DNA of 64,000 nt from a phage (GCA_024682255.1 GCA_024682255.1_4716.1); one strand, 5' to 3'; counted from the first letter of the stretch, positions 32,499-61,388 are shown. Program-made: numbers and translations. Notes: generated by a model from the sequence alone, not told the origin.

Positions 32499-35057
32499 TT
32501 ACTGCTCATCACGTTCCAGCAGATACTCGGAAGCGGTAATACCGTTTACCGTACGTACTGCTTTCAGACGAGTATCATCACTCAGAATCACAGTAACAGA
32601 TTGTAGACCTTTTACTTTGGTTTCGAAGGTCTTGAATACCTGATCCAGCATACGAGCAATGCTTGGGTTGGTTGCAGCCGATGCGTGAGTGTAACCGCTC
32701 TGGTTCAGCTTCAGAATCTTGGCGTTGGTCGGTACGCGAACAACAACATGCGGACGCATCGCGAACACGCTGTGATTAAACCAGTAAGCATCGTTGCTAT
32801 CTTCGTCGGTAACGATGTCCGGATTAACACGCATATCCTCGATAGCCGCATCCGCCAAACGACGTTCGATTTCGTCAGCATCCAGAGAGCCATCTTTCTC
32901 CAGTTCTGCACGATACTCGCTCATGGCAACCAGATGACGTTCACGATTCGCTGCGGATTTTTCGTGAGCTGCTTTCAGGTAGTCATGCATGTTGTACAGT
33001 TCAGCCATGGAAAGACGAATGTTCCACTGACCTTCGCCATCACGATTGCAGTAGAGACACTTCAGCATGTTGACCCAGGTGTAGTAGCAATTGGAGAATT
33101 CATCTTCAATGAACTTCTGGTCCATTTTAAGATCGTGAATCAGCCAACCGGACAGTTCTCCGATATCATCAACGAAGCTAGAGATGGTGGTTTCAGAGAA
33201 GTTCTTCGGTACGATACGTTTGATCAGCTTATTGACGTCTTTGGTCATGCTATCGTTCAGGAAATGCCAAATACGCAGAGGAATGACATCTCGATACTGT
33301 TGCATGATCTGACGATAAGCTTTGATATCGTCGCTACGACCTTTATCAATAGACAACGCATCCAGGAATTCATGGATTGCATCCAGCTCTTTGTCGGTAT
33401 AGGTTCCCAGATAGGAATTGACGGTGGCCAGGAATGCTAATGCGTCGTTTTGGTTAACGTCGGTGTTGGTCTGCTGAATGATCGCCACTGCAGCTTTAGT
33501 TTCAGCATCCTCAACGCTTGACGCTGCGATTGCATCGGTGACGGTAAACAGTTTCATTTCGCGCTGCTCACCGACAACGATTGGCTCACGCTGAACCGGC
33601 TTGTTAAGACTAACACGAACAACTTCTGCTTGCGCGATACGATCCAGTTTTGCCATTTCCTGCTCTGCCATACGACGAGCGGTTGGATCTGATTCAAGTT
33701 CGATGTATTCCACTTCTTCCTCCGTGAGGGATGTAATGTCAACAATGGTTTCATGAAGAATTCCGTTTTCGTCGATACGTGCTCGACGAGCGAAGTGCCT
33801 GAAGTCATACAACGTCGGCCAACGACTATTAGGTGCGTAGTCTTTGGCTTTCAGACGCATCTGCATAAATTCATCATGTTGAACAACACGACCGTAACGC
33901 TTAGCATCTTCGGTCGCATCAATTGGATTAACGGTCTTTGTTGCCGTAGCGGAACGAGCCGTACGAACCGGTTCCGGTTTCACCTGCGCCGGTTCAGGTT
34001 GAACGGGTTTCTGCTGTCCAGCCTTAACATGCCATTCTGGCTCTTCGTACTGTTCAGCAAATTGCTCAGCCGCTGCAAAGATATCGTTGATACCACCAAT
34101 ATCTCCTTCAGGATTTGTCGAGTAAATCCGTGGTTGTGGTGCCTCGTAACGCGGCGCTGTAGCAGCAGGTGCATCATCAACGATAGGATCGTCATCACCA
34201 ACATCATACAAACGGTTGAACGCACAATCCTTCGAATCGATGTACGATGGCGCTTGTGGTTGAACAACCGTCGGCCGAGGTTGTGCGCCGTATCCTGGCG
34301 TTGTTGGAGCCATACCACGCATAACTGCCGGATTAGGCCGGTATTGCGGTTGCGGATAGGTTCCACCATACATGGCGTACGCTGGCTGTTGTGGTTGACC
34401 GTACCCGCCACTAACCATCGCGCTTGCTTGCGGACCACGATAAGTCATCCCCATCTGCATCACCTGCTGCTTCAAACCACGTGACTTCTGAGCGATTTGC
34501 GCCAGGCTCCCACTTTTATTCAGCTGCGTGTACTTATTCGCGGCTTCCGGGTTAATGCGTGATAATTCAATCGCGCGATAATATTCCGGGTACTGATTCG
34601 GTTCAAAGAGCCACGTTACAAGATGATACAGCGCAACTGTGCTCACGGCAGCAGAGACGATCTGGTCGTCGGACGCGTTCTGTGGCATCGGGTTGATGTA
34701 AGAGAACACGTTCCAACAACAGTCTTCAACAAGCGATTCCATCATCATGTCGTTATTGGTATAACGTGCGACGAACTCGGTTTGTATTTTGTCTTGCTGA
34801 GCGAAGTCTTTCAGGACATTAAAGATGGCTTGACGGATTTTGACGATCGTCGCTTCTTGGGTGATGAAGTTATAGTTCTGCTGATATGAGGGTTGTTGGT
34901 ATTGTGGTGGTTGATAGGCGTTATTCGGGTATGCGCCGTACGGCGATTGCTGATACTGTTGCTGACGAACCTGTTCAGCCGTATAATTAACCGTGCTCGT
35001 ATAAGGGTTTTCGCTATAGCCCATTTGTTGATACATGTTGTTACTGCCGTTATACAT
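32499..35057 (-). CDS. large hypothetical protein with Q/Y/N/P-rich low-complexity (prion-like) segments
   Basis: 852 aa; N-terminus MYNGSNNMYQQMGYSENPYTS...QQQYQQSPYGAYPNNAYQPPQYQQPSYQQNYNF and an internal GGYGQPQQPAYAMYGGTYPQPQYRPNP stretch; remainder looks globular. Confidence 0.6.
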   Translation of the reverse strand: MYNGSNNMYQQMGYSENPYTSTVNYTAEQVRQQQYQQSPYGAYPNNAYQPPQYQQPSYQQNYNFITQEATIVKIRQAIFNVLKDFAQQDKIQTEFVARYTNNDMMMESLVEDCCWNVFSYINPMPQNASDDQIVSAAVSTVALYHLVTWLFEPNQYPEYYRAIELSRINPEAANKYTQLNKSGSLAQIAQKSRGLKQQVMQMGMTYRGPQASAMVSGGYGQPQQPAYAMYGGTYPQPQYRPNPAVMRGMAPTTPGYGAQPRPTVVQPQAPSYIDSKDCAFNRLYDVGDDDPIVDDAPAATAPRYEAPQPRIYSTNPEGDIGGINDIFAAAEQFAEQYEEPEWHVKAGQQKPVQPEPAQVKPEPVRTARSATATKTVNPIDATEDAKRYGRVVQHDEFMQMRLKAKDYAPNSRWPTLYDFRHFARRARIDENGILHETIVDITSLTEEEVEYIELESDPTARRMAEQEMAKLDRIAQAEVVRVSLNKPVQREPIVVGEQREMKLFTVTDAIAASSVEDAETKAAVAIIQQTNTDVNQNDALAFLATVNSYLGTYTDKELDAIHEFLDALSIDKGRSDDIKAYRQIMQQYRDVIPLRIWHFLNDSMTKDVNKLIKRIVPKNFSETTISSFVDDIGELSGWLIHDLKMDQKFIEDEFSNCYYTWVNMLKCLYCNRDGEGQWNIRLSMAELYNMHDYLKAAHEKSAANRERHLVAMSEYRAELEKDGSLDADEIERRLADAAIEDMRVNPDIVTDEDSNDAYWFNHSVFAMRPHVVVRVPTNAKILKLNQSGYTHASAATNPSIARMLDQVFKTFETKVKGLQSVTVILSDDTRLKAVRTVNGITASEYLLERDEQ

Positions 35058-35091: not shown

Positions 35092-36891
35092 TCAATCGAT
35101 TATGTCGTGATCGTTAATTTCTACAATTTCTTCATCGAATCGACCGACGTCTTTCTTCAAGCCTGCATTGGTTGCTGCAACGTCATTTGCGATTTGTGGG
35201 GTAATGATTAACCGACCGCGTTCGTCGATAGGTGCGTACATACTGAACTTCTGACGTCCGGTTGGTTCGGAGTGTGGAAGATTCAGATAGCTTGCGCAGA
35301 ACGGGATGGAACCACTAACCAAACGACTCTCGTCAGCCAATGCAGCACCGCCTGCGTTTTGGCTCTGGAGAACAACATGCGTGCTCACTTTGAACAGCAT
35401 GCAATCACCAGGTGACTGAATCGATGTTGCCACTTTCTCACGTTTATCACGATTGCTCTGGATATTGAGAATCGCTTCCGTTGCAACTTGATTTCGCAAC
35501 GCTTTCTGTACATCGCGATTGGTCATCTCTTTACGGTTGTTCTGTCGTTTACCACGTTCTGTGGTTTTAAGATGGAACCCCAGTTTAAAGATGCTCTTAC
35601 GCACATCCTCCATGACATATTCCAACACCATCAATTCCTTACCGAACATCGTCGTGGTATCAACACGACTCATTTCGATAGTAACATTGTCGATCAGATA
35701 CGCCATAAATTCGTAGAAGTCGTCGCAAGGAATATTTTCCTGTTTGAACTTCTTCTGCTGAATCTCGTCAACGTAAAGATCGAGACTGTCGATGTGGTGG
35801 TTTACATCACGCAACAAACGCGCATCCGCATTGTTGTTATTAAAGATAATCAAACCGAGTAATGTACGCCAATGGTCTGGCGCATTCGCGAACTCTTCAA
35901 CCGGATAATCTTCCGGAAAACGATCGTAATAACGGTCGATGAGATACAAGAATGCACCGACAAGGCCAAGAACAATACGTTCCGTGCCTCCGCGTCTTAC
36001 AGCAATTTGAATATCAGGATGTTTGTAACGTACAGCGCTAGCGCTACGACTTTTACCGCTTTTGCTGATACTAAAGCCTTTAGGAATAACCCCCATGGTG
36101 CGATAGATTACCCATTGGTCACGCGGAAAATCGCGTTCAGCAAGGTTCCGTCCGGTTACGGCTTCGACACCCGCAAAACGTCGGAAACACTCACCCACCC
36201 CATACTTCGCAAAGAGATAGTGACCCAGTGTGGTTACGCTGGTGTGGTTGATGTTGTCACCGTTCACTTTACTTTGTTTGGTAAGATGATAGATTTGCGA
36301 CCAGGGTAATGACAGGTAATGACGATAATCGATACCGGTCGGTGTATCATTGCTCAGGAACTGATACGGTGTACGTTTAACCGTGATTTTGTCACGCGGA
36401 AGCATGATGAATGCCATGTCTTTCGTGTAACTGATTACAGGGTCAGCGAGCACCGCGCTGAGAATGAAGTTCGCACCACGTAGACGCATTTTACCACCCT
36501 GACCTACCGCGGGTAATAGGAGAGGATGTCGGATAATGCAGTAGTCCTTTCCGGGTTCACGACGGTCACCTGATTCCATCGCGCCGTACCAGCGGAATTC
36601 TAGCATCACCATAAACACATCGGAAGGCGCAAGGTCGAAGGTCAGCTTACCGCTATCCTTCCCTTTGGTTTTCTTTCCTCCGCTTAAGTAGTGGAACTGT
36701 TCGCGGGCCATACAGCGACGCAGGCCATGATACACCAGATCCTTAGGTAAACTATCTTTGCTGTTCCGCCAAAGACGATCAACATAGGACTCAACATCTT
36801 GCATCTTATCGACGACGATGTTGCGTGCTATCTTCTCGTTCATCTTCGGTGCAAGCTCAGCGACAGCTTTGCAGAATCTAGGATCCATCAC
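35092..36891 (-). CDS. large hypothetical protein
   Basis: 599-aa ORF starting MMDPRF; no motif recognised. Confidence 0.55.
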   Translation of the reverse strand: MMDPRFCKAVAELAPKMNEKIARNIVVDKMQDVESYVDRLWRNSKDSLPKDLVYHGLRRCMAREQFHYLSGGKKTKGKDSGKLTFDLAPSDVFMVMLEFRWYGAMESGDRREPGKDYCIIRHPLLLPAVGQGGKMRLRGANFILSAVLADPVISYTKDMAFIMLPRDKITVKRTPYQFLSNDTPTGIDYRHYLSLPWSQIYHLTKQSKVNGDNINHTSVTTLGHYLFAKYGVGECFRRFAGVEAVTGRNLAERDFPRDQWVIYRTMGVIPKGFSISKSGKSRSASAVRYKHPDIQIAVRRGGTERIVLGLVGAFLYLIDRYYDRFPEDYPVEEFANAPDHWRTLLGLIIFNNNNADARLLRDVNHHIDSLDLYVDEIQQKKFKQENIPCDDFYEFMAYLIDNVTIEMSRVDTTTMFGKELMVLEYVMEDVRKSIFKLGFHLKTTERGKRQNNRKEMTNRDVQKALRNQVATEAILNIQSNRDKREKVATSIQSPGDCMLFKVSTHVVLQSQNAGGAALADESRLVSGSIPFCASYLNLPHSEPTGRQKFSMYAPIDERGRLIITPQIANDVAATNAGLKKDVGRFDEEIVEINDHDIID

Positions 36892-36927: not shown

Positions 36928-38364
36928 TTACTTTTTCGATGCCGCTTTCTCAAGAATCTTGAAAAAGGTCATACCTATACCGACAACGGCCGCAGTTATA
37001 CTCGCAGCGGCTTTCCAAACATCGACGTTACGTTGACGTCGCGCTTCTTCCGCCTCACGTTGTCTTTTTGCCTCTTCATCTCGACGACGTAGCTCGGCCG
37101 TGAATTCATCATGCTTACGTTTCGCGTCCTCATCTCGGCGACGCATTTCAGCGATAAATTCATCGTGCTTTCGTTTTGCTTCCTCATCACGACGTTTTAA
37201 ATCAGCTTGATAATCTTCGTGTATTTGTCTACGTAGATCATCTTGACGTTTCATTTCGGCTTGGTGTTGTTCCATCCTACGTTTTTGTTCGTCTTTAAGC
37301 TGATCGAGTTCGGCTTTATGTTGTTCATCACGCAGCTTTGCGTCGGCGCGATGCGCCTCGTGCATCTGTGCGATAACTGCCTTGTGTTCATCCGCCATAC
37401 GTCGCATTTCAGCCATCACCCCTTTAAGGGTTTCTTCTGATGCCTTACGTTCGTAGCTACGTTGGTCGAAATCATTTTTGTAGGCTTCTTTTTGGACGGG
37501 GTCGCGCCAATGCAATGCCGATTCACGTGTCGGAAAAACATTGTACTTCCACATCTCTTTTTCCAAATCTTCGACCGGTACGAAGATGGAGTCATTATTC
37601 CCGAAGGTAACCAACATACCTGGCGCGCCTGCTCCATTCGTTGGTTTTATTTCGAACGCTTTCCCCAGCACGTTAACCCATAAGCTATACGGATTATGAA
37701 AGTCGGGTGGCGTCCAATGGATAGTGAGTTGTGTTCCGAGAATCCGGAAACCCTCTGTTTTTCCCGTCAAGCTCCGCGCGCACGTTGCGATGTAGGGGTG
37801 ATCAATCCCTTTCGTAACGTGGTCTGCGCTTTTGTATTCTCCTTTAACTTTTACGATTGCCACGTTGATTTGCGCGACATAAGCGGGTTGATTAAAGTTC
37901 AACGTGTTGAGGTCAATTTGACATATCTCATCCAGCGTATCGTACCAGTCTTGCTGGTCTAATAGACGCGGCATTTTCTCTGTGTTAACAATACGACGGA
38001 TATGCGGTTTCCTTATCGCGTAACCTGTGCCGTTTTTAACACGGAGTATATCCCGACGTCTACCCGCGTAGACGAAGTTTCTGAATGCACCATTCGCATT
38101 AGATACGTCATGGCTGTCAACTATTACAGGACTACGAAATTTTGAACGTCGTACGATCCTGAATGTATTGCCGTCCTCAACCCTACCAGGAATGTACTGG
38201 AACATATTGTCGGAGGTGATAACCAACACGGTATGGCCAGATTCATTAATACATGCCCATCCTAATTCCAGGTCATATAACGGTTCAGCATAACCGTCAA
38301 TGCGATAAGCGTGCGTACCATCCCACGGTTCGAACGCGGTATCACATATTGGCATGGAGGGCAT
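36928..38364 (-). CDS. hypothetical tail-anchored membrane protein with charged E/R/K repeat helix
   Basis: Start re-assigned to ATG with GGAGG RBS (ORF track began at TTG 38370); globular N-domain, then tandem RRRDEEAKRKHDEF(I/T)AE(M/L) repeats in a ~130-aa E/R/K/Q-rich segment, then C-terminal hydrophobic AAASITAAVVGIGMTFFKIL. Confidence 0.6.
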   Translation of the reverse strand: MPSMPICDTAFEPWDGTHAYRIDGYAEPLYDLELGWACINESGHTVLVITSDNMFQYIPGRVEDGNTFRIVRRSKFRSPVIVDSHDVSNANGAFRNFVYAGRRRDILRVKNGTGYAIRKPHIRRIVNTEKMPRLLDQQDWYDTLDEICQIDLNTLNFNQPAYVAQINVAIVKVKGEYKSADHVTKGIDHPYIATCARSLTGKTEGFRILGTQLTIHWTPPDFHNPYSLWVNVLGKAFEIKPTNGAGAPGMLVTFGNNDSIFVPVEDLEKEMWKYNVFPTRESALHWRDPVQKEAYKNDFDQRSYERKASEETLKGVMAEMRRMADEHKAVIAQMHEAHRADAKLRDEQHKAELDQLKDEQKRRMEQHQAEMKRQDDLRRQIHEDYQADLKRRDEEAKRKHDEFIAEMRRRDEDAKRKHDEFTAELRRRDEEAKRQREAEEARRQRNVDVWKAAASITAAVVGIGMTFFKILEKAASKK

Positions 38365-38572
38365 CGTCAACCTCCATCTGATTGAAAACTATCACGCATA
38401 ACGCATTTCCCTTTTCTTGTTCTTATCAATCCGACAGCCGACGGTTTCAGCATCGTTCCTAGCGCGAGAACGACCTTACGTGTTGTCTATGCCTTATTCA
38501 TCGCAGGCGTCTGTCACCTAGGTAATGTAAGCGTCAAATTTTTTCTATTCGCAACGATAAACGGCATAGAAA

Positions 38573-38602
38573 CCTCCCCCAACCCTTACGGGCTGAGGGA
38601 GG
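38573..38602 (-). terminator. divergent copy of the conserved hairpin, downstream of the putative capsid gene
   Basis: CCTCCCCCAACCCTTACGGGCTGAGGGAGG; upstream flank GGCATAGAAA, downstream CTGACTTATG; a second small hairpin CCGGATGAATGTCCGG lies between it and the capsid stop. Confidence 0.5.
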
Positions 38603-38701
38603 CTGACTTATGTATCACGGTGCCGGATGAATGTCCGGTGCAATGAAACCATCCGCAACGTTGTCGTCAAGAATATCATCCAACGAAGCAGCTACGGTAG
38701 T

Positions 38702-40924
38702 TCAGTTGGTCTGAACCGGCAGCTTGATGTTTTCAGTGTAGACCTTACGCAGGTTCACAACGTTAATCAGACCCAGCAGCGGGCAGTTGTTAACGAAGCG
38801 GCAGCGCGGCTGAACCATGGTTTCTTTAGAAACCTGACCGTTACGGGTAACCTGAGCAACAGATACCAGTTCCGGTACATACAGGAACATACCGAAGGTC
38901 AGCGGATCCGGAGAACCCTGGATACCACGAGACAGGGTCACGAAGATCTTATCGCGCAGCATGACGTTCGGGTTATCTACAACCACGAAGTTGAAGCTTA
39001 CACCAACGGTACGGAAATCACCATCGGTCTGCAGGAACTGCGGGATGTAGTTGTCAGTTGCTACTACGCAACGCGGTTTCTCATCAGCGTTGGAAGACAG
39101 CAGCTGCAGAGCTGGCTGATAACCAGACTCGGAGTACATGCGGTATGCCATTTCACGAATCACGTTCATGATCGCAGCAGACACTTCAGCACGACGTTCT
39201 GCAGTGGTGGTACCCTGAACAGATTTCTCCAGGTCCAGATTGATTTCTTCGAACCACGGACGGATCAGGTAACGACCGAAACCTTCGATCTGGATGTCGC
39301 CGAACTGACGGAAGCGAGAGGTCGCAACCGCTTTCAGTGCGTCTTTGTAGCTGAACAGTTTCTCAACCATCAGGTTGTCGAAACGTGCGTTAGCAGCTTG
39401 GATCAGAACGTCCAGGTCAGCAGCGTTTTCTTCCCAATCCAGCGGACGAGGAATGGAGAACGGAGCCAGCAGGCCGATTGCGTAACGTTCTTGCTTCATG
39501 TTGAAGTCAAGGTGCTTACCACGCTCACGACGGTTGCTGTTGTTACGGCGGATACGCAGTTCGTAACCAACCAGTTTGAAGCTCAGGTCTTCAGCCAGTT
39601 GTTTGAACTCTTCGCTCTTACGCGGTTGTTCGATGTTGTCCTGATCAACCAGGCGATACAGTTCAGCGTTAGCGCCGTTAACACGCAGACCGGCTTTCTC
39701 TACGTTGGAAGAACCGTAAACTTCGATTGCCAGCTGAGCAGCGGATTTCGCATCGATGATGTCCTGCAGCGCTTCGGCTTTCGCGCCTTTAACGTCAACG
39801 GTGTTCTCATCAACGAAGATGGAGTGGGTGTCGAACGCCAGGGTCATTTTGCGGAAGTCGCCTTCCAGGGATTTCTGGAAACCGTTGGTGATCAGACCAG
39901 ATACGTCGAACGGTACGTAAGAGGTTTTGCTGTGCTTGGTAGATTTGATTTCCACCAGGATTTTGGTCAGCGTGATCTGGGCGTCCAGTGCGTCGGTGTT
40001 GTCGCTGTAACCGTTAGCCAGGATGCTATCGTCTTCAGCAATACCGATCATGTCGATCAGTTTATCAACAGCCAGGTAAGACGTTTTATAAGTTACGCCT
40101 TTAATTTCGATGTCACGCGGAGCAACGATAGTTTTGTCAACGAAGTACTGTGCGTTAGCATCGTCAGCACGATAGATCGGATGCAGATCGGTCACGTCGT
40201 TGGACAGAACGTCGTTGTACATGAACGCATCCAGCAGCGGACGACGTACCCAATCAGCCGGAGTACCGTCAGCGTTACGACGCAGGTGGTTGAACACCAG
40301 CGGACGACGGAAAGATACGTCGTAACCGATCTGGTTCGGAGCCAGAACGATGGTGTTATACAGTTCGTTACCCATGCGGCTCAGACGAGAAGCCTTCACG
40401 TTGAACACAACGGAGTACGGCATCATGTCACGCAGTTCTTTCTGGTCGTAGGACAGCTGAACCAGTTCTTCAGATTCGCAACCGCAGGAATCAGCAGCCA
40501 TCATGACGAAGTTAGAGCTGTCAACTTCACGGCCAGACGGAGTGGTGCTGATGTTCATGGAACGTGCTTGTTTAGCATATTCCACCGGGTTACCATGAGC
40601 CAGCATGATCAGTGCTGCTGCACGAGCCTGCTGTGCGTTCATGGTGAACAGCTGTTCTTCAATACGCTGCTTCTCTTCCGGAGTGGTGGTTTCGAAGCCC
40701 AGCATGGACAGAACCGGTTCTTCGGCTTTACGGATGTCGCTGCTGAAGCTCTTAACATCCATTTCGTTAACCAGTTTGTCCATGGATTTGAAATCAACCT
40801 TAGAAGCAGATTCCATAGACAGGAAGGTGTTCTCCAGACCTTTGTCTGCTGGTTTGCTACCATTAGCGGTCAGGAACTGGCGAGTGGCCGCGACCTGTTG
40901 GCTAAGAAGGGTTTTATCATTCAT
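38702..40924 (-). CDS. putative major capsid protein (jumbo-phage type, ~740 aa)
   Basis: 740-aa ORF with conspicuous high-expression codon usage (CTG, CGT, CCG, GGT, AAC, TTC dominate) unlike neighbours; tandem hairpins downstream; size fits phiKZ-like major capsid proteins; no sequence search possible. Confidence 0.5.
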   Translation of the reverse strand: MNDKTLLSQQVAATRQFLTANGSKPADKGLENTFLSMESASKVDFKSMDKLVNEMDVKSFSSDIRKAEEPVLSMLGFETTTPEEKQRIEEQLFTMNAQQARAAALIMLAHGNPVEYAKQARSMNISTTPSGREVDSSNFVMMAADSCGCESEELVQLSYDQKELRDMMPYSVVFNVKASRLSRMGNELYNTIVLAPNQIGYDVSFRRPLVFNHLRRNADGTPADWVRRPLLDAFMYNDVLSNDVTDLHPIYRADDANAQYFVDKTIVAPRDIEIKGVTYKTSYLAVDKLIDMIGIAEDDSILANGYSDNTDALDAQITLTKILVEIKSTKHSKTSYVPFDVSGLITNGFQKSLEGDFRKMTLAFDTHSIFVDENTVDVKGAKAEALQDIIDAKSAAQLAIEVYGSSNVEKAGLRVNGANAELYRLVDQDNIEQPRKSEEFKQLAEDLSFKLVGYELRIRRNNSNRRERGKHLDFNMKQERYAIGLLAPFSIPRPLDWEENAADLDVLIQAANARFDNLMVEKLFSYKDALKAVATSRFRQFGDIQIEGFGRYLIRPWFEEINLDLEKSVQGTTTAERRAEVSAAIMNVIREMAYRMYSESGYQPALQLLSSNADEKPRCVVATDNYIPQFLQTDGDFRTVGVSFNFVVVDNPNVMLRDKIFVTLSRGIQGSPDPLTFGMFLYVPELVSVAQVTRNGQVSKETMVQPRCRFVNNCPLLGLINVVNLRKVYTENIKLPVQTN

Positions 40925-41073
40925 TGAAAGTATCCTTTACAGAATTAACTTATATAAGTCGGTCGATAGACCATAGCGTACACGCGTGCATGCGCCACTA
41001 TAGTATCAGTAAACACTTACCGTTATTGAGGTCGTGATACAACACTAAAAATGCCGCATAACTTTTCCCTACG

Positions 41074-45857: not shown

Positions 45858-46632
45858 TTACTCAGGATCGGCGTAGAAATGATGGGGATAGCCGGAGTAC
45901 GATCCTGCGTTACCAGTTATGAATTCTTTCTGGGAATCGACGACGAGTGCGTAGAACTGTCGGGAATTTGTTAGCGTTGAGAAATAAGCGGAAAGGACTT
46001 TTTCATTCAACGCATCGCAAGGTAGACAGGTGCGCCCGCAAAACGTAACGATACGGCCGTCAGGATAGATCTCACGAATCATTCTCCACTCACCGATATC
46101 CACTGGTGATGGCGCTGCTACACCACCTGTTATCGTTAAGTAACGATCGTACGTGGTATGGCATTCAGGATGAATATAGATCGGCTTGTTCGTTTCGACA
46201 GGTTCCGAAGTATCTCGACGACTAAGGAGTTCAACAACTTCAAGATAAATCGTTGGTAGATCGCGGAGAATACCGGTGTTACGACGTTTCTTTGTGATTC
46301 GCGGACGAATCTCGTTAAGAGCGTATTCGAGCTTACGTTCAGCTTCGTACGCATCGAGTTTTATTAGGTGGCCCGGTTCATCGGAATGATCCTGAGTTAT
46401 GTAAACGAAATACGTGTTGTCTTTTGCAGCGCGAAAGATTCGAGCGACCTTAAATGTTTCTACAGTGCGATAACCAAGGCGCGATTGATTTTCCACAGGA
46501 GAAAATATCCAATGTCGTCCTTCGTCCGCCCCAACAATTTCGTTGAAACTATCCGTTTGTTCTGGGACCTGGTAGTCAGCCATTAATGTATCAAGAGCGT
46601 CGTCAGCCAGTTTGGTGTAAATATCTGTCATG
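45858..46632 (-). CDS. hypothetical protein (paralog of 44870..45772)
   Basis: Start re-assigned to ATG (MTDIYTKL) with GAGGATAC RBS; the ORF-track N-terminus would read through the conserved hairpin. Confidence 0.5.
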
Positions 46633-46735
46633 TTTGTATCCTCGGTTGTTAAGAGAAATTTACAATGATAACAGTAACCGTTGTTATCACCTAGGTAATG
46701 TAGTCGCGAAATAAACTGGATTAGACAGCATAGAA

Positions 46736-46767
46736 CCCTCTCCCAACCCGTAAGGGAAGGGAGAGGG
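46736..46767 (-). terminator. conserved hairpin element (AACCC-GTAA-GGGAA)
   Basis: CCCTCTCCCAACCCGTAAGGGAAGGGAGAGGG flanked by GCATAGAA and AATATAT; 16-nt motif TCACCTAGGTAATGTA lies ~35 nt away. Confidence 0.55.
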
Positions 46768-46773
46768 AATATA

Positions 46774-52639: not shown

Positions 52640-52691
52640 CGCAGATTCCTGTTTGAAAGATAAGATATCACATGATGGTCGACAGCATAAA

Positions 52692-52711
52692 GCCCACCCC
52701 GAAGGGCGGGC
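52692..52711 (-). terminator. GC-rich hairpin downstream of 52728..56114
   Basis: GCCCACCCCGAAGGGCGGGC; on minus strand followed by TTTATGCTGTC. Confidence 0.45.
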
Positions 52712-52727
52712 TGTTTATGCTTACGGA

Positions 52728-56129: not shown

Positions 56130-57236
56130 TTAAAAGTAATATTTCAGCGCCTCGCGAGAGACATCAAGCATAGCCGCCGTTGAATTCGTAAAGAACTCGG
56201 CATAGCCCACAAGCGGCACCTTGATCCACGCGGTATACGCTGTAAGGTATCGAGAAAGGGCTACCATAGCATCATCAGAAGCAGTAGTAACTGACAACTG
56301 ACCTTGTTGACGATAAACGTCGTTAAGTTTTGCTTGTAGATTCCCTGCGATTTCGAGTAACTCGTTGGCGTACTTTTTACGATGGTAACTAACCAGCAAA
56401 TCAACACCCGTATTTACAGACTCGAGTAGCACACCAACTTGTTCTAATGTTGGCATTGTAACCACCATATCCCGTTCAACGGACGGTACATCCTGGACTT
56501 CAAACCGTGCGGATTGAATAGCAAGGGATTGTTGAATTGGACCAGAACCTGAGGCGGTAACCTGATCGAGTCGCAGCACACGGTTGCCCAGTAACGTTAC
56601 GTTGACGAGTCTCGATTCGTTCAGCGTACTGTAGACTTTATGCAATAACGTGTACGCATCACGGTTAATCACATCGATTAATGCGGTATCCGTCTGTTTT
56701 AAGATAATGTCGAGCGCTCTATCTAACGTATTAGCGAACTGCTTGAAATCATCACGGAATGACGAAGACAAGAGATATTCAGCGATTGCTAAATTCTGCT
56801 TGTATAACGTATTCCCGGTCGTGAAATCGAACCCAAAACTGTTTCCATACCGTAGGTGCGGAGCCAGCGTTGACGAAGCTTCGAAGCTTTGCGCGATGGG
56901 TTTACGACCAACGGCTTTTGTGTAATGACGACGGATGTTACTGAGTTCAAGTTGTAGTGCGCGACTACGATCGATAAACCGTGCGATAAACGCGGTGATG
57001 TTTCGCAACGTTGTCCAGATTGCATCGATGATAGCTTTGATGATTTTCATCGCAAGCTGATCGTACGATTCCATTGTGAGGAGATCAGCACTTTCTGTGG
57101 TATAACCGGTCGTCGGAATACCGCCTGCTTGCTGATAAATAAGCTGGTGAATTTGTCGTTGCGTTGCTGTCTCTGGCACAGGTAATGTTTTTAACAAGCT
57201 TAACGCTTGAATCTGTCCATCATAGGTCTGCAGCAT
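56130..57236 (-). CDS. member 1 of tandem paralog array (inner-body/internal head protein-like)
   Basis: Start re-assigned to ATG (MLQTYDG) with GAGGAAACC RBS; segment AMKIIKAIIDAIWTTLRNITAFIARF aligns with the other four members. Confidence 0.5.
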   Translation of the reverse strand: MLQTYDGQIQALSLLKTLPVPETATQRQIHQLIYQQAGGIPTTGYTTESADLLTMESYDQLAMKIIKAIIDAIWTTLRNITAFIARFIDRSRALQLELSNIRRHYTKAVGRKPIAQSFEASSTLAPHLRYGNSFGFDFTTGNTLYKQNLAIAEYLLSSSFRDDFKQFANTLDRALDIILKQTDTALIDVINRDAYTLLHKVYSTLNESRLVNVTLLGNRVLRLDQVTASGSGPIQQSLAIQSARFEVQDVPSVERDMVVTMPTLEQVGVLLESVNTGVDLLVSYHRKKYANELLEIAGNLQAKLNDVYRQQGQLSVTTASDDAMVALSRYLTAYTAWIKVPLVGYAEFFTNSTAAMLDVSREALKYYF

Positions 57237-58521: not shown

Positions 58522-58628
58522 TTGGGACTCCTACGTAGGAAAATCTTGGCGGGTGATCATGTCCGCCATTTACCTTCTGAACCGTTGATTCAGAAGTCAA
58601 AAGATAACCGGATACCAACGCCATAAAA

Positions 58629-58660
58629 CCTTCCTCCAACCCAACAGGGAAGGAGGAAGG
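58629..58660 (-). terminator. conserved hairpin element (identical 32-mer to the copy at ~11048)
   Basis: CCTTCCTCCAACCCAACAGGGAAGGAGGAAGG flanked by GCCATAAAA and GATATGG; lies between paralog members 3 and 2. Confidence 0.55.
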
Positions 58661-61287: not shown

Positions 61288-61334
61288 TGTTGTCTCCAGT
61301 AATGATTCAAAAGATAAACCTGGACGGCATAGAA

Positions 61335-61366
61335 CCCTCTCCCAACCCGTCAGGGAAGGGAGAGGG
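61335..61366 (-). terminator. conserved hairpin element (AACCC-GTCA-GGGAA)
   Basis: CCCTCTCCCAACCCGTCAGGGAAGGGAGAGGG flanked by GCATAGAA and AATATGTC; lies between paralog members 5 and 4. Confidence 0.55.
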
Positions 61367-61388
61367 AATATGTCAGTTTATTAACTGA

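Follow-up and report, generated by a model that had tools for sequence, protein, structure and literature searches.

The 64,000-nucleotide (nt) stretch of phage DNA analysed here (GCA_024682255.1; called the window below) carries on its minus strand, at 36928..38364, a gene that raises the question of what a phage might do with a protein built as a globular head on a long charged helix with a hydrophobic end. The gene encodes 478 amino acids (aa) plus a stop codon (ATG at 38364, TAA at 36928-36930). Its product is 97.9% identical in amino acid sequence (tblastn) to gp40 of Escherichia phage vB_EcoM_Goslar (Goslar_00040, QBO63833.1, YP_009820725.1, HOV27_gp040), which is annotated as "hypothetical protein", and we call it gp40 as well. 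Goslar is a nucleus-forming jumbo phage of the Chimalliviridae, and the window derives from one of its close relatives. An earlier note on this DNA had described an open reading frame (ORF) of this length with an N-terminal domain, a charged helix and a hydrophobic end, and all three elements are present. By homology and genome position the window gene is the Goslar ortholog of the Chimalliviridae core family phiKZ gp122/RAY gp001, and we give about an even chance to the reading in which its product is a tail-anchored, self-associating stalk protein with an anchor, an oligomeric stalk and a cytoplasmic head. The coordinates of its parts are collected in Table 1.

A core gene family of nucleus-forming phages

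Three subfamily alignments were compared by hhalign: A2 (Goslar-like sequences and two ~30% relatives), A5 and A6. A2 matches A5 with a probability of 98.3% (E 1.2e-14, 314 columns), A5 matches A6 with 97.3% (E 2e-11), and A2 matches A6 with 92.9% (E 4e-7). PHROG families 7727, 7286 and 15024 bridge the subfamilies, and phrog_7727 matches the window protein at E 5e-6. In supplementary file 3 of Prichard et al. (2023), Goslar gp040 is grouped with PHIKZ122, 201phi2-1 gp202, YP_009217217 (the PhiPA3 gene-138 product) and BCM95160 (an FLC6 protein) under RAY gp001, and Table 1 of Gerovac et al. (2025) lists phiKZ 122 as "core genome, uncharacterized".

The position of the gene is conserved as well. 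In the metagenomic relatives (below) and in those sampled genera in which this genome end was readable, the shared order is a DnaB-like helicase gene on the opposite strand, then genes for a ~200-aa (gp42-like) protein, the PhiKZ-type major capsid protein (MCP), the family protein and a ~600-aa protein. The family gene was found at this same position, between the gene for the MCP and that for a subunit of the non-virion RNA polymerase (nvRNAP), in 12 further phage genera sampled (Xoo-sp14, RP12, FLC6, Eowyn, a Vibrio phage, Machina, PCH45, SPN3US, 2050HW, Psa21, PhiPA3 and the phiKZ-like fnug). Homology, conserved position and a published ortholog listing thus all place the gene in the core orthogroup, and most clades keep the predicted plan of head, stalk and hydrophobic tail. 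An architecture that had been thought unusual for a phage protein is therefore not an oddity of one phage, since the gene belongs to the core genome of the Chimalliviridae.

A full HMMER scan of the N-terminal domain against 1.84 billion representative proteins added only two further clusters, ~31% identical, both of which are metagenomic and have the head-helix-hydrophobic-tail plan and the same neighbours. Word-indexed homolog searches (with the N-domain and two alignments) gave, among the matches listed, only relatives at least 90% identical plus P0016 and the SPN3US-type proteins P0017 and P0018, and a locus search with A2 returned only Goslar-like contigs. Pfam gave nothing significant for the window protein or 10 family members, and sequence searches of the PDB with the Goslar-type, phiKZ-type and PhiPA3-type proteins gave no match. 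The literature searched contains no paper that we could find on Goslar gp40 or on tail-anchored jumbo phage proteins, and it gives no function for any member of the phiKZ gp122/RAY gp001 family; matches there to "gp122" (the Churi paper and the SPN3US paper) and to "gp202" refer to other proteins.

Two further observations concern these genomes. One or more extra small ORFs follow the MCP gene in phiKZ (PHIKZ121, L009 6952-7404), PhiPA3 (gene 137, L007 7288-7821), Psa21 (L021 6457-7074), Machina (gp87, L018 6724-7476) and PCH45, and in PhiPA3 and phiKZ the extra ORF overlaps the start of the family gene by ~30-45 nt. The proteins P0019-P0047, relatives of gp40, come from Goslar-like genomes that are present as 236-248 kb contigs in many public assemblies of isolates named as Salmonella enterica, E. 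coli (O157 among them) and Shigella, which suggests that Goslar-like jumbo phages frequently travel with clinical and food isolates or contaminate them.

A long charged stalk with 11- and 18-residue units

Between head and tail, aa 290-449 contain no Pro, a single Gly and 53% D/E/K/R. The composition of aa 291-450 is 16% R, 16% E, 12% A, 11% D, 10% K and 8% Q, and an AlphaFold2 monomer model makes aa 289-475 one uninterrupted helix with a pLDDT of ~70-80. What had been described as ~130 residues of almost purely charged sequence is indeed a charged, Pro-free helix, but it is longer (160 aa, or the ~24 nm of Table 1 at an assumed 0.15 nm per residue) and less pure, with 17% LIVMFYW and 5% His.

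The tandem repeats named in the earlier note are real at the peptide level, but their DNA period is not the ~45 nt given there. Tandem Repeats Finder reports a single array at 37076-37194 with a period of 54 nt, which is 18 aa, in 2.2 copies with 78% matches; it encodes the units KRRDEEAKRKHDEFIAEM and RRRDEDAKRKHDEFTAEL plus a degenerate third copy, with the consensus RRRDEEAKRKHDEF[IT]AE[ML]. The stalk before this array has a different unit: written in rows of 11, aa 319-385 place M/I/L in columns 2 and 5 and His in column 9, and past the aa 385 region the unit turns to 18 residues. The Goslar reference has these repeats too, as do three contigs from IMG/VR and dozens of assemblies made independently, with substitutions and in-frame length variants. 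Because independent assemblies carry them, a sequencing or assembly artefact, the objection that the earlier note had raised against itself, is ruled out.

We asked how the hydrophobic residues are arranged around this helix with a helical-wheel test, in which they are treated as unit vectors over ~145 residues and their resultant R is compared with 2000 shuffles. R is 0.61 with a peak at 3.62-3.64 residues per turn, and it rises to 0.67-0.71 at 3.63 residues per turn when His is included; neither value was matched by any of the 2000 shuffles, and three relatives with other stalk lengths give equivalent periodicity. The LIVMFYW residues and His thus lie on one face over the whole stalk. The eight stalk His (327, 335, 338, 349, 367, 382, 400 and 418) are almost perfectly in phase with one another (R = 0.92) and share a face with the hydrophobics, with mean angles of 55 and 30 degrees, respectively. 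On either side of this seam one flank is acidic (11 D/E, 3 K/R) and the other leans basic (8 K/R, 5 D/E). Autocorrelation of the stalk peaks at lags of 18, 36, 4, 33, 40 and 22, and a Fourier test on the Kyte-Doolittle values alone is not significant (p = 0.14); the resultant test by residue class was the one that decided. The core period of 3.63 lies between 18/5 and 11/3, and the repeat units are of 18 and 11 residues, so period and units are both those of a non-heptad coiled coil (3.6-3.67 residues per turn, 11/18-residue units). The straight seam and its charge-complementary flanks look like the signature of a parallel, nearly unsupercoiled, non-heptad coiled coil.

Several features of the stalk weigh against this and would suit a monomeric single alpha helix (SAH), that is, a stiff isolated spacer between anchor and head that does not self-associate. 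The stalk is more than half charged and lacks Pro. The seam is weak: canonical hydrophobics are scarce in the stalk, and of the 40 positions in the seam sector 16 are LIVMFY, six His, four Ala and seven Arg, with about a quarter charged. Opposite-charge pairs of the SAH type at i/i+3 and i/i+4 are also enriched (score 0.338, compared with 0.088 +/- 0.035 in shuffled sequences, z = 7.2), and the uninterrupted helix of the AlphaFold2 model is a monomer. An SAH nevertheless should have no hydrophobic seam, and this stalk has one, with oppositely charge-biased flanks such as the e and g positions of a coiled coil have. Its ion-pair density of 0.34 is well under the 0.78-1.1 that model SAH sequences give with the same scoring, and the length variants described next preserve the phase of the seam, which a free-standing SAH does not require. 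We therefore consider the monomeric helix unlikely. Of the "long single alpha helix" that had been predicted, the long helix and its ion pairs stand, and a clean SAH does not.

Variation in stalk length

Comparison of copy number among related phages, which had been proposed as a check, shows that the length of the stalk does vary. Full-length close relatives from dozens of assemblies fall into only four length classes, 460, 478, 489 and 507 aa, and their alignment contains three indels, of 11, 18 and 18 residues, all within the stalk and in or at the edges of the hendecad part at aa 319-385. With a turn of 99.25 degrees per residue, they shift the seam around the helix by no more than +12 or -14 degrees, and because the shift is so small the seam is continuous from head to anchor in every length variant.

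The N-domains of the close relatives form two clades that are ~90% identical to one another, and stalk types recombine without regard to the head. Between P0007 and P0010 the heads are identical and the stalks 78.8% identical with an 18-residue gap, whereas Goslar and P0010 have heads that are 91% identical and stalks that are 95% identical. Of the ten differences between the window protein and that of Goslar, seven sit in the two intact 18-residue repeats, and among close relatives the tail is 96.6-100% identical and the stalk 70-95% identical. Shuffled stalks and phase-preserving indels together indicate that the stalk is a fast-evolving, recombining module under a phase constraint.

The Pro-free charged stretch before the tail is 143-190 residues long in the Goslar clade and ~45-125 residues elsewhere in the family. 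Tandem 11-residue units precede the hydrophobic tail in Machina (L018 7584-8672; RKDSFDERSTL and RKDHYDERSTV), PCH45 (L008 9483-10415; SLARKDFYEER and SLARKDSSDGW), SPN3US (L010 7031-8032) and FLC6 (L020 6842-7987). Since several other clades carry them, hendecads beside the anchor are ancient in the family and not new in Goslar. In Goslar-like phages the stalk would have been lengthened by tandem duplication, and it would evolve through phase-preserving 11- and 18-residue indels plus recombination.

The C-terminal hydrophobic segment

Hydropathy analysis gives the single C-terminal segment that had been predicted. The sole Kyte-Doolittle peak is AAASITAAVVGIGMTFFKIL (aa 452-471), with values of 1.76 over 19 aa (453-471) and 1.82 over 17 aa (452-468) against a threshold of ~1.6; by the same scale there is neither a signal peptide nor any other transmembrane (TM) segment, which is the arrangement of a tail-anchored protein. 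W450-K451 and the tail are invariant among close relatives, and the position of the segment and the WK motif are conserved across clades. Homologs at ~30% identity and syntenic homologs at 12-20% keep a hydrophobic segment at the extreme C-terminus, which is more than chance would give. Among 15 proteins sampled from 14 clades, 11 (from 10 clades) have an uninterrupted apolar run of 12-17 residues that stops 0-10 residues before the C-terminus, and in most of these 11 a [WL]K motif stands just before the run. The Machina, PCH45 and SPN3US proteins terminate exactly at the last hydrophobic residue, as tail anchors do. Crude sums on the Hessa scale are +1.35 kcal/mol for the gp40 tail and -0.4 to +2.9 kcal/mol for most members, which is in the range of single-span anchors, and mostly +9 to +13 kcal/mol for the best N-domain windows of the family proteins. 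The tail is rich in small residues (A/G/S/T), a composition that we take to be usual for helices that pack in membranes. The segment is probably a tail anchor.

Not all of the family fits this equally well. The apolar run of gp40 is only 17 residues long, is of moderate hydrophobicity, is rich in Ala, Gly and Thr and has basic residues on both sides, and the C-termini of the phiKZ, PhiPA3, Psa21 and 2050HW proteins are amphipathic rather than TM-grade (Hessa sums of ~+3 to +7 kcal/mol, +6.7 to +7.0 in phiKZ and PhiPA3; hydrophobic moment 0.40-0.62). The ancestral role of the C-terminus may therefore have been protein binding or peripheral membrane binding. By extension, the C-terminal helix of gp40 itself could be a docking helix, for a protein or for the membrane surface, in which case gp40 would be soluble and shell-associated, its helix plugging, for example, into the lattice of chimallin (ChmA), the protein of the phage nuclear shell, or into its own oligomer. 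The strongly conserved motif beside the helix would suit a specific protein contact, and the PhiPA3 ortholog is recovered with ChmA (below). Yet the apolar runs of the 11 proteins, their hydrophobicity, the three proteins that end with the run and the small-residue composition all resemble membrane anchors more closely, and we think a docking helix improbable in gp40.

The N-terminal domain

The head (aa 1-289) has an ordinary composition and no hydrophobic segment (Kyte-Doolittle maximum 0.67). AlphaFold2, run with 6-9 sequences on the full-length protein and on the N-domain alone, gives it a pLDDT of 52-58, which weighs against the proposal insofar as no binding function is readable from a fold modelled with such low confidence. 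Foldseek of this model against the PDB found nothing better than E 0.57, and the Tudor/SH3/KOW-like small-barrel matches at that level were treated as noise. Against BFVD the same low-confidence model has 26 matches at E<=1e-3, and each match that has a name is an uncharacterised protein from a jumbo phage, with the syntenic ones of 201phi2-1, Eowyn, RP12 and Psa21 among them. We conclude that the N-domain is an orphan fold family restricted to chimalliviruses.

Conserved positions, defined as those present in at least 90% of alignment rows, were sought in A2, in A3 (10 sequences) and in A4 (18 sequences). N40, in an N-E-S-x-H motif, is invariant in all three although the family members are only 12-30% identical; P190 and G249 are nearly invariant in A3, G249 and A283 are nearly invariant in A4, and H189, W229, F277 and T279 are invariant in A2 only. 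Two conserved N-domain histidines that are neighbours in sequence space are a possible site for binding or for a metal.

Where the protein may act

The Goslar virion mass-spectrometry table includes gp038, gp039 and gp042, and gp040 is absent among the entries listed. The "ruler" of the earlier note is accordingly not a virion ruler. A tape measure was rejected on the same absence and on the location of the gene outside the tail module, and a scaffold was rejected, although the gene lies beside that for the MCP and its product is missing among the virion entries listed, on the 289-aa beta-rich head and the hydrophobic tail.

Functional leads come from the orthologs in phiKZ and PhiPA3. Two independent antisense oligonucleotides against phiKZ 122 each caused a mild plaque defect and lowered ChmA (both scored "+"), and at 30 min this knock-down belongs to a small number that had "strong effects on phage transcription". 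One phiKZ transposon-sequencing table has zero insertions in PHIKZ121-124. The PhiPA3 ortholog, YP_009217217.1, was found in ChmA-miniTurboID labelling and in ChmA and ChmB pull-downs, and its role was left unknown by the authors; PhiPA3 gp137 is also in the ChmA-miniTurboID list. The leads from knock-down and proximity labelling are towards the nuclear shell or early infection. According to a 2025 review, capsid assembly takes place on the inner membrane and infection begins in a lipid early-phage-infection (EPI) vesicle; the review names no phage membrane protein for either.

These leads have weaknesses that count against the function we propose. The pull-down signal of the PhiPA3 ortholog is weak, one peptide in one ChmA-GFP pull-down; the start of phiKZ gp123 (nvRNAP) lies ~10 nt after the gp122 stop, and the knock-down and transposon phenotypes could be polar effects on gp123; and the absence of gp40 from the virion is not absolute.

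For a tail-anchored, self-associating stalk protein we infer membrane insertion, oligomerisation, topology, a binding partner and a time of expression as follows. Made in the cytoplasm without a signal peptide, gp40 would insert its last ~20 hydrophobic residues post-translationally from the cytoplasmic leaflet side into a bilayer, possibly that of the inner membrane, possibly that of the EPI vesicle with its equivalent topology. Along the straight hydrophobic/His seam the stalk of 160 residues would pair with one or more of its own copies, giving a parallel non-heptad (11/18-residue) coiled coil that would hold the conserved N-terminal domain ~21-28 nm off the membrane. The N-domain would there bind a phage assembly, preferably a partner at or on the ChmA shell during establishment of the nucleus, or alternatively nascent procapsids. 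We favour the shell or nucleus because of the knock-down data, the proximity labelling and the operon context, and we regard a partner there as possible, though short of probable. More doubtful still is a specific form of this proposal, in which the His-zipper coiled coil would act as a tether that sets a 21-28 nm gap between the bilayer and the chimallin shell, or its import or docking machinery, at the birth of the nucleus.

Head assembly initiated at the membrane, of the T4 gp40/gp20 type, is the functional analogue for a different role, in which gp40 would be a membrane-bound factor for procapsid initiation or assembly that is discarded before maturation and would not be a tether for the nucleus or EPI vesicle. 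The gene lies directly downstream of the major capsid and vertex-complex genes in all phages sampled, gp40 is missing among the mature-virion proteins listed, no membrane factor is named for the inner-membrane assembly of chimallivirus capsids, and ChmB, with which the PhiPA3 ortholog was recovered, binds portal and enriches capsid proteins. However, a terminator-like hairpin separates the capsid gene from gp40 and the nvRNAP subunit gene is only 36 nt away, knock-down of phiKZ 122 alters transcription at 30 min and lowers ChmA (unless explained by gp123 polarity), and a 24-nm gap between membrane and nascent capsid is not described, so that we judge this role, too, to be rather unlikely. Chimalliviruses have poorly defined holins and spanins. 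A role in lysis, as a holin, an antiholin or a spanin-like protein whose coiled coil and TM segment act at the envelope, is very improbable indeed and was rejected: one TM-like helix with a long charged helix is superficially i-spanin-like, but i-spanins have to be anchored at the N-terminus, with their coiled coil in the periplasm, while the C-terminal position of the hydrophobic segment and the lack of a signal sequence would leave stalk and head in the cytoplasm, the neighbours are capsid and RNA polymerase subunit genes with no endolysin or o-spanin gene adjoining, and what knock-down of the phiKZ ortholog alters by 30 min is transcription and not lysis.

Comparison with known systems

The closest likeness of gp40 is to its own orthogroup. 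phiKZ gp122, 201phi2-1 gp202, the PhiPA3 protein and RAY gp001 share a homologous N-domain (hhalign 93-98%), the same locus and non-virion status, and the orthogroup as a whole shares a head, a helical linker and a C-terminal hydrophobic or amphipathic helix. Within it the Goslar clade differs in having the longest stalk, the 11/18-residue tandem repeats and a coherent His/hydrophobic stripe, and the members from Pseudomonas phages differ from the Goslar type in lacking a TM-grade tail.

Outside the family the likenesses are of architecture. Eukaryotic tail-anchored tethers set the distance between a membrane and its partner, and their anchor is inserted post-translationally; they include VAP-A/B, with a beta-sandwich MSP domain, a coiled coil and a C-terminal TM segment, the golgins giantin and golgin-84, and the KASH proteins. 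Like these, gp40 would have a cytosolic head, a coiled-coil spacer and a C-terminal single-pass anchor, which in gp40 is a prediction, but there is no sequence or detectable fold relationship and gp40 is phage-encoded. In E. coli, ElaB, YqjD and YgaM (DUF883) are inner-membrane proteins of ~100 aa without a signal peptide. They resemble gp40 in their helical cytoplasmic part, their small-residue-rich C-terminal TM segment and their very short basic end; unlike gp40 they have no globular head and no long stalk, and they are not homologous to it (no Pfam match).

The stalk has parallels of its own. With the SAH or ER-K domains of myosin VI/X and caldesmon it shares a very long, Pro-free, E/R/K-rich helix with i/i+4 ion pairs, and it differs from them in its hydrophobic/His seam, asymmetrically charged flanks and lower ion-pair density. 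Non-heptad coiled coils are known from the hendecads of tetrabrachion and from the stalks of trimeric autotransporter adhesins. gp40 resembles hendecad and 18-residue coiled coils in its units of 11 and 18 and in its 3.63 residues per turn, which implies nearly straight helices, but for a coiled coil it has an unusually polar core, with His, Met, Ala and Arg, and the stalk would be cytoplasmic, not on the cell surface. Among phage proteins, T4 gp40 is a membrane factor for portal and prohead initiation, and phi29 p16.7 combines a TM segment, a coiled coil and a DNA-binding domain. Both are phage-encoded, have one TM segment and localise assembly or replication at the cytoplasmic membrane, and p16.7 has a coiled coil too; both are, however, small, non-homologous, without a 24-nm stalk and not from nucleus-forming phages, and the anchor of p16.7 is N-terminal.

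Gene neighbourhood and sequence features

Table 1. Features of the gp40 gene and of the region upstream of it (window coordinates)
Feature	Residues	Coordinates	Strand	Remarks
N-terminal globular domain	aa 1-289	37498..38364	minus	beta-rich (AlphaFold2)
Charged helical stalk	aa 290-449	37018..37497	minus	160 aa, ~24 nm if fully helical
Hendecad (11-residue) register	aa 319-385	37210..37410	minus	His 327/338/349 spaced exactly 11
18-residue tandem repeats	aa 390-443	37036..37197	minus	two near-identical copies, degenerate third
WK motif (W450-K451) and predicted tail-anchor helix AAASITAAVVGIGMTFF-KIL	helix aa 452-471	36952..37017	minus	
Short basic end EKAASKK	aa 472-478	36931..36951	minus	
Shine-Dalgarno GGAGG		38371..38375	minus	6 nt 5' of ATG 38364; sequence read directly
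GC-rich hairpin (CCTCCC...GGGAGG), then TCTATGCCGT		38561..38602	minus	3' of the major capsid gene
ACATTACCTAGGTGA 15-mer		38514..38528	minus	~150 nt 5' of the gp40 ATG

The start codon at 38364 is fixed by the Shine-Dalgarno sequence six nt upstream, since the TTG at 38370 falls inside it. The major capsid gene (gp41 ortholog, 38702-40924, minus strand) lies upstream of gp40 and the gp39 ortholog begins 36 nt downstream; the Goslar virion study labels gp39 an nvRNAP protein. Judging from the elements in the intergenic region, gp40 may share its expression with the nvRNAP subunit and not with the capsid gene.

The first of these elements, the hairpin with TCTATGCCGT, tentatively resembles a terminator plus a TATG-type promoter motif. 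The same composite, a GC-rich hairpin of the CCTCCC...GGGAGG type followed immediately by T[CT]TATG[CG][CT]GT, is found at four other intergenic sites within the window, giving five minus-strand sites in all (38561-38602, 46725-46770, ~52682-52720, ~58618-58660 and ~61324-61370), and one further match to the TATG motif lies at 35709 within the gp39 gene. This motif looks like the TATG late-promoter (nvRNAP-like) motif of phiKZ. The second element, ACATTACCTAGGTGA, recurs as an identical 15-mer at 46687-46701 (minus), with related 9-mers at 57188 and 10300 (both minus), and in both intergenic regions the 15-mer sits ~30 nt 3' of the hairpin-TATG element. Its core tentatively resembles the phiKZ early-promoter core, TATATTAC. 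If it is an early promoter, two promoters would serve each of two genes, gp40 and that at 45858-46631.

Two neighbouring features may be noted. An antisense ORF of 766 stop-free codons, unusually long, spans the entire major capsid gene (38627-40927, plus strand) and is probably a by-product of codon usage. The gp38 ortholog (32499-35057, minus strand, 852 aa) begins with ~70 codons of low-complexity, prion-like sequence rich in Q/Y/N/P that reads MYNGSNNMYQQMGYSENPY...QPPQYQQPSYQQNYNF. Mass spectrometry of Goslar gives ~25 copies of gp38 per virion, and when its phiKZ counterpart, gp124, is knocked down, phage transcription is again perturbed.

Significance

The architecture described here, a predicted tail anchor with a stalk, is not described in the literature searched, where the family is still uncharacterised. 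Nature already offers a set of stalk lengths (460/478/489/507 aa) between identical heads and tails, on which the importance of the spacing could be put to the test, and the continuous His/hydrophobic stripe at 3.63 residues per turn is an unusual coiled-coil design. Should gp40 in fact be a tether, it would be the first phage-encoded tail-anchored membrane-contact tether, a functional analogue inside a bacterium of the VAP-, golgin- and KASH-type tethers of eukaryotes; the length of its stalk would be tuned in phase-locked 11/18-residue steps, and the His stripe would make stalk association sensitive to pH or metal ions. More generally, gp40 is a candidate link between the membrane and the structures that nucleus-forming phages build in the cell. 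Because it belongs to the core genome, is non-virion, matters for phiKZ propagation and has a PhiPA3 ortholog near the ChmA shell, it is a candidate for either of two membrane-dependent steps, the one in which the EPI vesicle hands the genome to the protein nucleus and the assembly of capsids at the inner membrane.

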